Positions 3,311 to 11,776 of a stretch of 12,259 nucleotides of DNA are shown piece by piece; the first letter of the stretch is position 1; every line of letters begins with the position of its first letter. Both the position numbers and the translations under genes were made by a program. Source of the DNA: an uncultured Gammaproteobacteria bacterium (GTDB taxonomy: Bacteria; Patescibacteriota; Patescibacteriia; UBA2591; UBA6264); NCBI GenBank assembly GCA_964617525.1, contig CAZTWG010000010.1, positions 1-12,259 on the forward strand, given 5' to 3'. Under the pieces are notes generated by a model. It did no database searches, was not told the origin of the DNA, and was given only the letters and a program-made list of their open reading frames with translations.

Positions 3311-4042
3311 ATGAATATGAAAAAGATCATTATTGCTGTATGCTTATTATTTTTATTAATATCGTCCGAGATTGCTTTTGCGGCCGACGCTCTTTATAGA
3401 ATGTTGCATGCAGATGAAATTCAATCGTTCAAGAAAGACCAAGATGCCATGATTGTTGGACAGTTGATTGATAAACAGAGAGATAAGTTCACTGTAAAAG
3501 TTCTAAAGGTAATCAGCGGAAAAGTGAAGTCAGACACAATATTAGTTCCTGATGATTTTAATTATGGTTGGGGTCAAACAGAGTTAACGCCTGCAGTAAA
3601 TGATTTTTGTGTTATGTCCCTCAAGAGGTTTGGCAATTATTATAAAAAAGCATGGGGGATATTTAAGGCCGATAGTGGAGATTACAAGACCTTAAAACTA
3701 ACTACAAAAAATGTTCCATCTTCAGGACTAATGGGAGACTTTGCTTGTATAGAATGGTATGTAAACTCAGGAGGTGCTGAAAACGATTTTTTCTTTAATA
3801 GTGGGACTGCTTATGCAATACGTCCAAACGGTCAGAGCACCCAAATCTATCCTAAATCAACAACGGATGCAGATACTACAACGACAAGTGGTGCAACCCA
3901 AGCTCAGGAGATAACGATAGCAAAAGATAAAATCAGTGATGTAGATTCAAGTTCAAAACTATCTAGCTTTTTGATAGTTGTTATTATTATGATTGGCATA
4001 ATAGCTGTAGTTTATTTGAAACCACGGGAAAAAGTTAAATAG
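3311..4042 (+). CDS. Secreted, C-terminally membrane-anchored hypothetical protein
   Basis: Signal peptide MNMKKIIIAVCLLFLLISSEIAFA-AD, a Thr/Ser-rich linker (TTDADTTTTSGATQAQ), and a C-terminal TM helix FLIVVIIMIGIIAVVYL followed by KPREKVK. No LPxTG motif. Confidence 0.7.
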   Translation: MNMKKIIIAVCLLFLLISSEIAFAADALYRMLHADEIQSFKKDQDAMIVGQLIDKQRDKFTVKVLKVISGKVKSDTILVPDDFNYGWGQTELTPAVNDFCVMSLKRFGNYYKKAWGIFKADSGDYKTLKLTTKNVPSSGLMGDFACIEWYVNSGGAENDFFFNSGTAYAIRPNGQSTQIYPKSTTDADTTTTSGATQAQEITIAKDKISDVDSSSKLSSFLIVVIIMIGIIAVVYLKPREKVK

Positions 4043-4090
4043 ATAAAAACTTCGCCTAACAGCGGACATATGGCTCCATTATGCCTCCCG

Positions 4091-4309
4091 CGAATTCCCT
4101 CACTTTGTCCGTCGAGAACTTTGAAATTAAATATTATATTATAAATATTAATGTAATTTAATTAGAAGAACCTGCTCACTGCGTTCGCAGAACCTTGTAA
4201 TTAAATTTATCTTATAAATATTAATGTAATTTAATTAGAAGAACCTGCTCACTGCGTTCGCAGAACCTTGTAATTAAATTTATCTTATAAATATTAATGT
4301 AATTTAATT
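4091..4309 (+). repeat. Three tandem 73-bp units (4091-4163 diverged; 4164-4236 and 4237-4309 identical) ending at the rbr start codon
   Basis: Unit: AGAAGAACC + core TGCTCACTGCGTTCGCAG + AACCTTGTAATTAAATTTATCTTATAAATATTAATGTAATTTAATT. Period is 73 bp by direct counting. The last unit abuts the ATG at 4310. It contains TTGTAA plus an A/T-rich -10-like block. Confidence 0.9.
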
Positions 4310-4882
4310 ATGGAAAAAACAATAAAAAATTTAACAAAAGCATTTATTGGCGAAAGCCAAGCAAGAAACCGTTATACAATGTATGCTAAAATTGCCAAGA
4401 AAGAAGGTTATGAAGAAATATCAGCTAATTTTGCGTTAACAGCTGACCAAGAAACAGAGCATGCCAAATGGTTAATGAGAATGATTAATCAATTAAAGAA
4501 TGACAATTCAGAGTATGACGAAATTATTGTTGAGGCAGGCGCCCCAACAATATTGAAAGATACGAAAGCAAATTTAAAAGCAGCAATTGCAGGAGAAAAT
4601 TATGAACATACAATTATGTATCCGGAGTTTGCCAACACAGCAGAAGAAGAAGGTTTCTCAGATATTGCGAATAGACTAAGGGCTATTGCTAAAGCAGAAG
4701 TTAATCACGAAGATAGATACAAGAGATTTCTAGAAGCATTAGAAAGTAGTTCAGTGTTTGAAAAGGAAGAAGAAGTGATTTGGGTTTGTCGAAAATGTGG
4801 ATATATTCACAAGGGAAGGCAAGCTCCTGGTAAATGTCCTTCTTGTGGGCATCCTCAGGCATATTTTGAAGTTAAAAAATAA
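4310..4882 (+). CDS. rbr: Rubrerythrin (ferritin-like diiron domain plus C-terminal rubredoxin-like domain)
   Basis: AFIGESQARNRYTMYAKIAKKEGY, ETEHAKW, GENYEHT and AEVNHEDRY (E/ExxH diiron ligands). C-terminal CRKCGYIH..x..CPSCGHP (CxxC-x12-CxxC). Confidence 0.93.
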   Translation: MEKTIKNLTKAFIGESQARNRYTMYAKIAKKEGYEEISANFALTADQETEHAKWLMRMINQLKNDNSEYDEIIVEAGAPTILKDTKANLKAAIAGENYEHTIMYPEFANTAEEEGFSDIANRLRAIAKAEVNHEDRYKRFLEALESSSVFEKEEEVIWVCRKCGYIHKGRQAPGKCPSCGHPQAYFEVKK

Positions 4883-4894
4883 TAATAAGTAAAT

Positions 4895-5347
4895 ATGACC
4901 TACCAACACACCCAAACTGGTCGTTTGATGATATTTGTTTCACTTGCTGTAGTATTATTGTTCGGTAATATTTTATTAAACACAAAAATTAATACTTTTA
5001 TTTTTGTTGAAATGTTTGTAATTCTAGGTATTTTGGTCTCCTTTTGCTCTCTTAATGTAATGATTGATGAAGAATATTTACGAATTAAATTTGGATATGG
5101 TATATTTAAAAAACGTTTCGCCATTAAAGAAATAATTTCAGCAAAAATAGTAAAAAATCATTGGTACTATGGATGGGGAATAAGATATTGTTTAGCGCCT
5201 CCTATGTGGATTTACAATGTTTCTGGTCTTGATGCAGTTGAAATAAAGACACAAGATGGCGAAATATACAGAATAGGCACAGATAAGCCAGAAAATTTAG
5301 AATATGCTATTATTCAGGCAATTAAAGAGTCTAGTAAAAATAAATAA
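4895..5347 (+). CDS. Hypothetical membrane protein (two N-terminal TM helices plus a soluble C-terminal domain)
   Basis: 150-aa ORF starting 12 nt after the rbr stop, so probably co-transcribed. TM helices LMIFVSLAVVLLFGNILL and IFVEMFVILGILVSFCSL. The C-terminal beta-rich domain (EYLRIKFGYGIFKKRFAIKEI..VEIKTQDGEIYRIG) could be bacterial-PH-like; that is tentative. Confidence 0.6.
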   Translation: MTYQHTQTGRLMIFVSLAVVLLFGNILLNTKINTFIFVEMFVILGILVSFCSLNVMIDEEYLRIKFGYGIFKKRFAIKEIISAKIVKNHWYYGWGIRYCLAPPMWIYNVSGLDAVEIKTQDGEIYRIGTDKPENLEYAIIQAIKESSKNK

Positions 5348-5354
5348 CAAAATT

Positions 5355-5426
5355 AGAAGAACCCTTCGCTTCGCTCAGGAACCTTGTAATTAAATTTTAT
5401 CTTATAAATATTAATGTAATTTAATT
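5355..5426 (+). repeat. Fourth, dispersed copy of the 73-bp cassette with a different GC-rich core, ending at the start codon of the 5427 gene
   Basis: AGAAGAACC + core CTTCGCTTCGCTCAGG + AACCTTGTAATTAAATTTTATCTTATAAATATTAATGTAATTTAATT, then ATG at 5427. The flanks are near-identical to 4164-4309 (one extra T); the core is replaced. Confidence 0.88.
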
Positions 5427-6005
5427 ATGAAAAAATTAGATCTTGAAACTGCCATTGAATACCCATTCAATAGAGCAAAAGGTATGTGGAATATTTTGTG
5501 GATATTTTTACCAATCATTGGTTGGTTTGCTTTGGGGGGATATAGCGTTAGGATTGTTAAAGAATTTATTAAAGGGAAATTCAAGCAATTACCTACTTTT
5601 AAATTTAAAAATGATCTAGAATTAGGGTTCATGATGTCTATGAAATTTATTCCTTTTCTAGTGGTATACTTATTACTTCTCTCGGGCGTGGAGAATATTG
5701 CAGATTTTCTGAGCATCAAAAATCAAAAATTGTTAGTAAACTTGGTTGAGGCATTTTTAGGATTATTTATAGTTCCAACTTTAGCTATAAATTTTTTTAA
5801 TAAAGAAACAATAAGTTCTTTGTTTGAGATAGAAATATTGAAGTCTGTTTTTAATAATTTTGATGATTATGTCGTGGCTTTATTAAAGAGTATTTTGTTG
5901 AGTATAATATTTTTGGTTATGTGGATGGTCTTGGTCGGCATACCAGCTGGAACTTTCACGAAAAATATGTTTTTAGCAGATTTTTATAGAAGAAAAGTGA
6001 AATGA
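5427..6005 (+). CDS. DUF4013-like integral membrane protein
   Basis: The N-terminal pattern AIEYPF..(x)..GGYSVRIVKEFIKGKFKQLPTFKF..LELGFMMSMKF resembles the DUF4013 signature (..YP[FM]....GY.VRvi.....g....LP.F.....lf.dGlK). Followed by several TM helices. Confidence 0.55.
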   Translation: MKKLDLETAIEYPFNRAKGMWNILWIFLPIIGWFALGGYSVRIVKEFIKGKFKQLPTFKFKNDLELGFMMSMKFIPFLVVYLLLLSGVENIADFLSIKNQKLLVNLVEAFLGLFIVPTLAINFFNKETISSLFEIEILKSVFNNFDDYVVALLKSILLSIIFLVMWMVLVGIPAGTFTKNMFLADFYRRKVK

Positions 6006-6028
6006 GGGATTTTAATAATTAATATATC

Positions 6029-7120: not shown

Positions 7121-7149
7121 TTAAGTTATGTGGGTAATTTGATTTTTTC

Positions 7150-7178
7150 TTTTCATAATAATTTAATTGTGATATAAT
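7150..7178 (+). promoter_or_regulatory. Extended -10 promoter for the patatin-like gene
   Basis: TGaTATAAT at 7170-7178 (TGnTATAAT consensus), with a weak -35 TTTTCA at 7150-7155. The ATG is at 7209. Confidence 0.5.
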
Positions 7179-7208
7179 ATAAAATAAGTAAATTTTTAAC
7201 ATTAAATT

Positions 7209-11220: not shown

Positions 11221-11451
11221 ATGCCAAGATATGATGGAACAGGTCCTACGGGAATGGGTGCCGGTACAGGCTGGGGCAGAGGCCCTTGTGGTGCTGGTCG
11301 TGGATCTTGTAGGGGATTTGGTGGCAGATTCGGTTTCCGCCGATTTTGGACCAAGTCAGAAGAAAAAGAATCTTTACAAGAAGAGAAAGAAATGTTGGAG
11401 AATGAAATGAAAGCAATCAAAGAGCGCTTGGACGAATTAAAAGAGAAATAG
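11221..11451 (+). CDS. DUF5320 family protein (Gly/Arg-rich N-terminus plus C-terminal coiled coil)
   Basis: MPRYDGTGPTGMGAGTGWGRGPCGAGRG..GFGGRFGFRR matches the DUF5320 hallmark MPRgDGTGP.G.GP.TGrG.G.C.G. The C-terminus is SLQEEKEMLENEMKAIKERLDELKEK. Confidence 0.8.
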   Translation: MPRYDGTGPTGMGAGTGWGRGPCGAGRGSCRGFGGRFGFRRFWTKSEEKESLQEEKEMLENEMKAIKERLDELKEK

Positions 11452-11501: not shown

Positions 11502-11569
11502 ATCTAGACGGAATTAATAAATAAAAAATAATTTAAGAAATAGAAAGGTCATATTAAGCAAATAAACTA

Positions 11570-11776
11570 ATGTTAAATTTTATGTTTAATAGCCAAAGAT
11601 TAGGTTCTGGGATGGGTAGAGGAGGTGGTCGAGGTCGTCAGAATAAAGGGTTTAGATTAGGTCCCGGCGGGGAATGTCTATGTCCAAAGTGTGGGGCAAG
11701 GGCTCCTCACCAGACAGGAATCCCTTGTTACGAGCAAAAGTGTTCTAAATGTGGCAGTCTTATGACTAGGCCATAG
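11570..11776 (+). CDS. Small Gly/Arg-rich protein with a 6-Cys metal-binding ribbon
   Basis: [17 protein letters not shown], then [36 protein letters not shown] (CxCxxC...Cx5CxxC). The start is uncertain (ATG at 11570, 11582 or 11612). I recall similar ..CxCPKCG..xPH..G.PC....CPkCG..M.R proteins in NifX/MinD-like neighbourhoods. Confidence 0.6.

Follow-up and report, generated by a model that had tools for sequence, protein, structure and literature searches.

The window, i.e., the whole stretch of 12,259 nucleotides analysed here, contains a rubrerythrin gene (rbr) whose upstream region is filled by three head-to-tail repeat units (u1, u2, and u3), and a further unit of the same kind is situated in front of a gene for a DUF4013 membrane protein. 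The features of this region are as follows (positions are those of the window):

4043-4090, plus strand: constant spacer of 48 nt, 3' of the stop codon of the upstream gene (243 aa), outside the variable array
4091-4163, plus strand: u1, with the hairpin-type module CCCTCACTTTGTCCGTCGAG, TTGAAA (4121-4126), an AT-rich block, and the 16-mer TTAATGTAATTTAATT (4148-4163)
4155-4207, no strand assigned: imperfect palindrome of 53 nt spanning a unit junction (AATTTAATTA, GC hairpin, TAATTAAATT); it recurs at 4228-4280
4164-4236, plus strand: u2 (type F), AGAAGAAC, with the hairpin core CTGCTCACTGCGTTCGCAG (4172-4190), TTGTAA (4195-4200), and the 16-mer (4221-4236)
4237-4309, plus strand: u3, the same as u2, with the hairpin core (4245-4263), TTGTAA (4268-4273), and the 16-mer (4294-4309)
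4310-4882, plus strand: rubrerythrin gene rbr, 190 aa (Pfam Rubrerythrin 3.8e-33, RUBY_RBDX 1.3e-13)
5355-5426, plus strand: dispersed fourth unit (type D), with the hairpin core CCTTCGCTTCGCTCAGG (5363-5379), TTGTAA (5384-5389), and the 16-mer (5411-5426); duplicated in L025 and L044
5427-6005, plus strand: DUF4013 membrane protein gene, 192 aa (Pfam DUF4013 2.2e-09), the second gene of the window with an ATG abutting a cassette

Tandem Repeats Finder places a single strong array at 4115-4310 of the window (period 73, 2.7 copies, 96% matches, score 362), and direct reading of 4091-4309, split at the unit boundaries, resolves the three units that an earlier note on this DNA had described. Its statements that the two proximal units are identical (u2 and u3 are the same 73-mer) and that the final unit stops one base before the rbr start codon (last base of the array 4309, ATG at 4310) are likewise correct. 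The distal unit, which had been called diverged, does match u2 and u3 well only over its 3' 45 nt; however, it is not simply a decayed u2, as its hairpin type (CCCTCACTTTGTCCGTCGAG) is a different one that resembles the hairpin of L018, another metagenome contig. TTGTAA had been ascribed to every unit; it is found in u2 and u3, whereas u1 possesses TTGAAA. Four exact copies of the 17-mer ATTAATGTAATTTAATT are present in the window, and with up to three mismatches there are five matches as opposed to 0.99 expected, a number equalled in one of 200 shuffles. The fourth unit ends at 5426 and passes directly into the DUF4013 start codon at 5427. The intergenic regions of both rbr and DUF4013 consist essentially of cassette and hold no other promoter candidate; in the 10 kb to the left of the window, no cassettes were found.

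Concerning the spacer in front of the array, a GC-rich fragment had been located at 4049-4068 and considered as a possible older, eroded unit. The string in question is actually situated at 4050-4067, and the idea of an eroded unit is unsupported: only CTTCGC is common to this string and a hairpin core, the unit profile gives no match within 4043-4090, and the spacer is identical in all same-species alleles while the units vary. The RNA fold of the spacer is not significant (z = -0.75 on the plus and +0.45 on the minus strand).

The repeat belongs to a family with a common layout, consisting of (A/T)TAAGAAC, a GC-rich core of 11-31 nt, AACCTTG(A/T)AATTAAAT, 13-17 AT-rich nucleotides that usually end with TATAAA, TATATA, or TATAGA, and the terminal TTAATGTAATTTAATT; the units are between 56 and 77 nt long. 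In 'empty' units (L001, L009, L021, L028, L029), AAGCAAAGCTT replaces the hairpin module and the remainder of the cassette is intact. Exact-pattern scans yielded 13 loci in species-representative genomes and 15 in metagenome contigs, and the family is counted by exact pattern in 8 and 15 loci, respectively; after removal of chance matches, about 20 loci exhibit the same layout. The dispersal ahead of other genes that the earlier note had implied is borne out, with matches in at least 20 loci of other low-GC metagenome genomes, several of them deposited as Patescibacteria (records titled Patescibacteria group bacterium). A search with the unit profile added more diverged units as well as longer arrays, with four units in L016 and five in L019. 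The exact 16-mer is shared by genomes of 30-38% GC. All arrays run head-to-tail on one strand, with no alternating orientation within clusters, and all copies of the cassette are intergenic.

Several origins and affiliations were considered for this family. Rfam, searched at gathering thresholds with the window and eight related loci, returned only tRNA and LSU rRNA and no family for the unit. A phage origin was rejected, as the full pattern has no match in viral contigs and the two matches to the -35 module found there are coincidences within coding sequences. No transposase was found linked to the cassette. The ends of the element (ATAAGAAC at the beginning, AATTTAATT at the end) are not inverted copies of each other, i.e., they do not form terminal inverted repeats; the inverted repeats AATTTAATT and AATTAAATT are internal and flank the hairpin and the -10 region. 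ATA or TTA is often found at both borders of the element, yet it is also part of the unit junction. The direct-repeat pair AGAACC, as a candidate target-site duplication of an inserted hairpin, was discarded, since the 'empty' alleles read AAGCAAAGCTT and not a single AGAACC. Among the strains compared, no completely empty site was found; the differences consist of gain, loss, and swap of units within existing arrays.

The GC-rich core, noted before as such but not recognised in its nature, is a conserved, covarying hairpin. Among 34 distinct cores, the closing stem has a mean length of 3.44 bp, as compared to 0.64 bp in shuffled cores (maximum 1.18 in 500 shuffles), and stems are maintained by compensatory changes (CTGC/GCAG, CTGAC/GTCAG, CTGGC/GCCAG, CTTGCC/GGCGAG, CCT/AGG, CTT/AAG, CTTCC/GGAAG, CCCGCC/GGCGGG). 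Many cores have the inner motif GCTTCGC or TCGCTTCGCTC in common, and the hairpin is flanked by AAGAAC and AAC. Where two units meet, AT-rich arms on either side (AATTTAATTA and TAATTAAATT) lengthen it into the imperfect palindrome of 53 nt, the RNA fold of which has an energy of -13.4 kcal/mol (z = -3.6) for the plus strand and of -17.1 kcal/mol (z = -4.3) for the minus strand. G-U wobbles are distributed between the strands at seven versus five cores and are uninformative for a strand assignment, such that the data tell neither the strand of the structure nor whether it is formed by RNA or by DNA. Apart from the cassette, trmD of L026 contains two in-frame GC-rich palindromes (around 11251-11285 and 11554-11610; e.g., ccccgt...acgggg and ggcccagcc-acgag-ggctgggc), which are absent from the L030 orthologue; insertions of hairpins thus do occur in these genomes, and those in trmD recall the Rickettsia palindromic elements, which insert into coding genes.

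Independent assemblies of the window's species were obtained via exact-protein look-ups in NCBI, ENA, JGI, and Logan. All of them are short-read assemblies, such that copy numbers above two could be collapsed. The upstream region of rbr exists in the window's species in five alleles with two to four units in total:

u1+E (E being a 56-nt unit of the empty type): three assemblies
u1+F (F being the 73-nt unit of the window): ERZ27248110
u1+F+F: the window
u1+F'+F (F' has the AT-rich block of u1, such that the middle unit is distinguishable): Ga0190304, JGI
u1+F+F+E: ERZ27248307

The unit u1 is present in every same-species allele, with one SNP as its sole change, and u2 was counted in the allele comparison as absent from four other alleles. 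At the DUF4013 locus three alleles are found: most assemblies contain one unit, Ga0190304 contains two (D+D), and Ga0190303, a recombinant allele, contains two, of which the second has the rbr-type hairpin, which shows exchange between the rbr and DUF4013 loci, located 1.1 kb apart. A third polymorphic locus precedes the gene of a 2659-aa surface protein, where one MAG has two units more than another assembly (L034, 17600-17860; L031, 19770-19870). The surface protein contains T4SS_pilin and Big_5 domains; in the shorter allele of this locus, what follows a hairpin module is a different sequence, which contains TATAAT. In another lineage, trmD is preceded by one unit in L030 and by four in L026, and the arrays of L024 and L027 are cut by contig ends. 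Further contigs end inside the cassette (L002, L043, L045, and the end of L035); being a repeat, it breaks assemblies and so explains why those of these genomes are interrupted at such sites. The polymorphism in copy number that the earlier note had predicted is thus real and recurrent.

Each unit exhibits a promoter-like layout, also as previously described. TTGAAA, found in u1 and in most members of the family, agrees with the -35 consensus TTGACA at five of six positions, and TTGTAA, found in u2, u3, and the DUF4013 unit, at four of six. This -35-like hexamer is conserved over about 30 distinct units and is situated in a block of 13 nt that is nearly invariant across genomes. A promoter scan paired TTGAAA with AATATT at a distance of 17 nt in u1 (4121-4149), with TAAATT at 18 nt in L026, and with AAAAAT at 16 nt in L023; the simple scan flagged no promoter in u2 and u3. 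The assignment of a -10 element is ambiguous: the clearest TATAAA block keeps a fixed position with respect to the 16-mer and is only 12-16 nt away from the -35 hexamer, the interval between this hexamer and the 16-mer differs by about 5 nt among profile units, and no clean -10 element exists at a fixed spacing of 17 nt. If transcription of rbr started without a leader at the A of its ATG, the hexamer from -12 to -7 would be TGTAAT, without an A at -11, a position at which A is near-invariant in -10 elements, and TAATTT (-10 to -5) would be too close. Furthermore, the cassette lacks the extended -10 (TGnTAnnnT) that characterizes other promoter-like sites of the window, namely TGTTAATAT around 20 nt before tRNA-Asn (1167-1239), TGGTATAAT, and TGTGATATAAT before a patatin gene. 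Extended -10-like sequences (TTGTGGTATGAT and TTGTGATATAAT) are also found in a pair of 54-nt direct repeats with 74% identity (2513-2566 and 7142-7195), which may represent a second, different type of shared promoter.

Start codons lie ahead of the 3' end of the unit at about 13 loci, with gaps of 0-35 nt:

0 nt: rbr, DUF4013, and SfLAP (same genome); pgk (L017); the L028 gene
5 nt: gene of a Wzy_C-domain membrane protein (O-antigen ligase family; L010)
13 nt: trmD and secG
14 nt: miaA
24 nt: GH57
35 nt: rpmH

The copy fused to the ATG of the SfLAP-family membrane protein gene (L031, 17062-17132) is a diverged cassette with the 16-mer variant TTAAAATAATTTAATT, and brings the number of ATG-fused copies in the window's genome to three. 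In the orthologous trmD loci of L026 and L030, a stretch of 64 nt that runs from AGAACCTTG to the ATG shows no difference, as opposed to 87.4% identity (582/666) in the trmD coding sequence and 94.8% in the upstream ORF, which points to constraint on, or recent conversion of, the AT-rich part. In L011, the cassette and a tRNA gene are divergent, and a one-directional terminator-like hairpin lies around 40 nt downstream of the cassette, which for this reason is the only visible source of a transcript there. In both L011 (220-300) and L012 (377-445), no ORF comes after the cassette, but a strong terminator-like hairpin at a distance of about 40-60 nt; these stretches could be small RNAs, and the hairpin of L012 may also terminate a convergent ORF of 78 aa.

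Concerning the leader of rbr, the description as very short and devoid of a Shine-Dalgarno sequence holds in so far as the latter is missing, but this is nothing specific to rbr. The window has a GC content of 26-40% (in 400-nt windows), and almost every gene in it has an AT-rich sequence without Shine-Dalgarno motif before its ATG (e.g., at 1534-1543, 4885-4894, 6019-6028, and 7199-7208), such that initiation independent of this motif looks like the norm in this genome. A complete sigma-70 is encoded in the window, with DnaG just upstream of it in related contigs, which marks the source as a bacterium; an archaeal-style TATA box with leaderless mRNA was dismissed on these grounds. A start-stop mini-ORF (ATGTAA in the 16-mer) acting as a ribosome-loading device was dismissed as well, as variants of the 16-mer read AAGGTAA and the SfLAP copy of the same genome reads AAAATAA. 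Between the upstream gene and rbr no forward terminator was found, and rbr could thus be co-transcribed with that gene; since the hairpins possess no T-run in the orientation of rbr, the distal units could also read through to it.

Not all copies face a start codon, however. About nine of roughly 22 arrays (around 40%) sit between two genes transcribed in the same direction and face backwards, into the 3' end of the first of them. Such backward arrays are found between rpsD and rpoA (L021), between ftsA and ftsZ (L016, four units), between rpsB and tsf (L022), between fba and a small membrane protein gene (L019, five units), and between a reverse transcriptase gene and a glutaredoxin-like gene (L014, two units), as well as, among others, in L003, L005, L029, and L012. 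The reverse-transcriptase-like ORF that adjoins the two-unit array of L014 (6792-7838, minus strand) comprises 348 aa and contains YGDDFVIL. An ordinary promoter would not be expected at backward-facing arrays inside operons, which weakens a reading of the cassette as a promoter, and the ratio of orientations (about 13:9) is that expected of an orientation-blind repeat. On the minus strand, GTTCTTAT comes after the hairpin, and in L023 the scan classified this combination as terminator-like; on the plus strand at the rbr array (3900-5600 scanned), no terminator was called, the hairpin being followed by AACCTTG and not by a T-run. Canonical terminators with T-runs are found elsewhere in cassette-bearing genomes. 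Read leftward, the hairpin with GTTCTTAT looks like an intrinsic terminator, and termination may be a role of the backward copies.

Taken together, the rbr array is explained best as a local tandem amplification of one member of a dispersed, mosaic family of intergenic repeats in Patescibacteria-like genomes, the units of which are most likely portable promoters of the sigma-70 type and are gained, lost, and swapped between strains; a probability of roughly 0.55 is assigned to this interpretation. The conserved hexamer (TTGAAA or TTGTAA), the AT-rich -10 region, and the gaps of 0-35 nt to start codons are in keeping with such a promoter. Each unit is composed of a covarying hairpin or its empty counterpart AAGCAAAGCTT, a -35-like element within CTTG(A/T)AATTAAAT, an AT-rich block with a TATAAA-like end, and the near-invariant TTAATGTAATTTAATT. 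Judged from the sequence, rightward transcription would begin within or just after the 16-mer and leave rbr with a leader of about 0-11 nt that lacks a Shine-Dalgarno sequence. The long stretches shared by the units, together with the palindrome at their junctions, would allow units to be gained, lost, and exchanged via slippage or unequal recombination, and this turnover would give rise to the two to four units present before rbr depending on the strain, with a putative effect of copy number on expression.

The same data might be produced by a selfish or neutral palindromic repeat, similar to REP/BIME or MITE elements, which has no dedicated promoter role, builds up wherever there is room for it between genes, and lies next to start codons only because intergenic regions are short. 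The nearly balanced orientation relative to the flanking genes (about 13 to 9) fits this explanation, and so do the mosaic architecture with hairpin types common to different loci and to assemblies from different samples, the gain, loss, and swap of units among strains, and the in-frame GC-rich palindromes in trmD of L026 relative to L030. It is nevertheless unlikely, considering that the AT-rich promoter-like part, and not the palindrome alone, is most conserved (identical where the coding sequence has diverged by 12.6%), that the 16-mer is exact in genomes of 30-38% GC, that five independent genes start exactly at the last base of the element, and that neither terminal inverted repeats with clear target duplications nor a link to a transposase nor copies in viral contigs were found. 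Alternatively, the hairpin itself might be the functional core, acting on RNA as terminator, attenuator, or stabiliser of the 3' end, with the AT-rich flanks as mere context. The covariation of the stem, the minus-strand tail GTTCTTAT with the terminator-like call in L023, the backward arrays at rpsB-tsf, ftsA-ftsZ, and rpsD-rpoA, and the stability of the junction fold on the minus strand (-17.1 kcal/mol, z = -4.3) are all in agreement with such a function. This possibility appears still less probable, however: 'empty' units with AAGCAAAGCTT keep an otherwise intact cassette (L001, L009, L021, L028, L029), AACCTTG rather than a T-run follows the hairpin in the orientation of the window, the wobbles (7 versus 5 cores) favour neither RNA strand, these genomes have canonical T-run terminators elsewhere, and both the conserved 16-mer and the fusions to ATG would be left without explanation.

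A device of an oxidative-stress gene, as assumed by the earlier note, or more precisely an rbr-specific region with, e.g., repeated operators of the PerR/Fur type duplicated for tuning, is suggested by the position ahead of rubrerythrin and by the AT-rich inverted repeats on both sides of the -10 region (AATTAAATT and AATTTAATT). Such an operator is contradicted by the occurrence of the cassette before many unrelated genes: in other genomes it precedes pgk, trmD, miaA, rpmH, secG, GH57, and the Wzy_C-domain gene, several of which are housekeeping genes, and in the same genome it precedes DUF4013, SfLAP, and the giant surface protein gene, while around 40% of the arrays face away from any start codon and the spacing of the inverted-repeat arms varies by about 5 nt; the chances of this reading are very slim. 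Equally improbable is that the identity of u2 and u3 is an artefact of assembly. All data are indeed short-read and several contigs break inside the cassette; against this, independent NCBI MAG, ENA, and JGI assemblies share the units in differing numbers, the independent ERZ27248307 also has F+F, followed by E, the JGI assembly has F'+F with its distinguishable middle unit, and all arrays have the same unit boundaries.

Building on the interpretation as portable promoters, one might further imagine that such modular cassettes of promoter plus hairpin serve as expression rheostats at the level of the population, with whole units added, removed, and swapped between loci via recombination such that the number of promoters and the type of hairpin ahead of stress, surface, and housekeeping genes would change, and that backward copies terminate transcription in operons, which would make the cassette a dual-direction punctuation element as yet undescribed in bacteria; this scenario is speculative and, on the whole, doubtful.

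Similarities to known systems exist, but none of them matches the cassette in all respects. The Correia elements of Neisseria are small dispersed intergenic repeats that provide adjacent genes with promoter elements, form a hairpin when transcribed, and are present or absent depending on the strain; they are MITEs of 100-155 bp with terminal inverted repeats and TA target duplication and are not typically arranged in tandem or fused to ATG. The cassette is likewise small, dispersed, intergenic, promoter-like, hairpin-bearing, and strain-variable, whereas it has no terminal inverted repeats, no clear target duplication was seen, and its tandem arrays are fused to start codons. Classical tandem promoters (e.g., rrn P1/P2) are distinct, fixed sequences in series; several promoter-like modules precede one gene also here, but as identical repeats with a number that varies by strain. 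Bidirectional promoters arising from the symmetry of the -10 element were reportedly described by Warman et al. in 2021, and the TTGTATA(T)A region, being symmetric, might in principle initiate transcription from either strand; copies that face both ways would then be explained. The copy number of REP/BIME clusters can be strain-dependent, and such clusters may have a role at the 3' end of RNA or as terminators.

REP and BIME sequences of enterobacteria and pseudomonads consist of extragenic GC-rich imperfect palindromes and short motifs in mosaic clusters (PMC2817692). The cassette shares with REPs a repeated GC-rich imperfect palindrome in extragenic DNA, here with 34 distinct cores and compensatory stems; in contrast to BIMEs, in which REPs alternate in orientation (PMC2817692), its units are strictly head-to-tail. 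Furthermore, conservation in REP/BIME is centred on the palindrome, whereas in the cassette the AT-rich promoter-like flank is most conserved, and the hairpins of the cassette are much smaller (11-31 nt). Putative mobile promoters, as described by Nijveen, Matus-Garcia, and van Passel, are near-identical upstream regions before unrelated genes within and across genomes (PMC3575422). In both cases a promoter-like sequence propagates separately from the gene; however, the cassette is short (56-77 nt) and mosaic, has a covarying hairpin, forms strain-variable tandem arrays, is found in both orientations, and shows no link to transposable elements. These putative mobile promoters, the mosaic clusters of REP/BIME (PMC2817692), and Correia-type MITEs are the closest known concepts.

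In searches of the literature on promoters, leaderless mRNAs, and intergenic repeats of Patescibacteria/CPR, no description of the cassette was found, and the family, the covariation of its hairpin, and the turnover of units within populations at several loci appear to be undescribed. Patescibacteria encode few transcription factors, and to our knowledge almost nothing is known of the organization of transcription in the Candidate Phyla Radiation. A cassette recurring before unrelated CPR genes constitutes a concrete candidate promoter with a standard leader free of Shine-Dalgarno motifs, and possibly a tool for expression; natural variation in the copy number of a promoter region is present in one population at three or more loci, and the covarying mini-hairpin is a further object of interest. 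Both the generality and the dynamics of the element exceed what the earlier note held, and it is not an rbr-specific device; the upstream region of rbr is generic and not stress-specific.

Two minor observations concern the records themselves. Four MAGs that carry the same cassette as the Patescibacteria-titled records (L009, L010, L012, L014; GC 33-38%) are deposited as uncultured Gammaproteobacteria, and these co-assembly bins may have been mislabelled taxonomically. In L017 (83-1220, minus strand), the pgk gene behind the ATG-fused cassette appears to be split, with an ORF of 203 aa corresponding to positions 1-198 of the 379 of the PGK profile, followed by a separate ORF of 172 aa.
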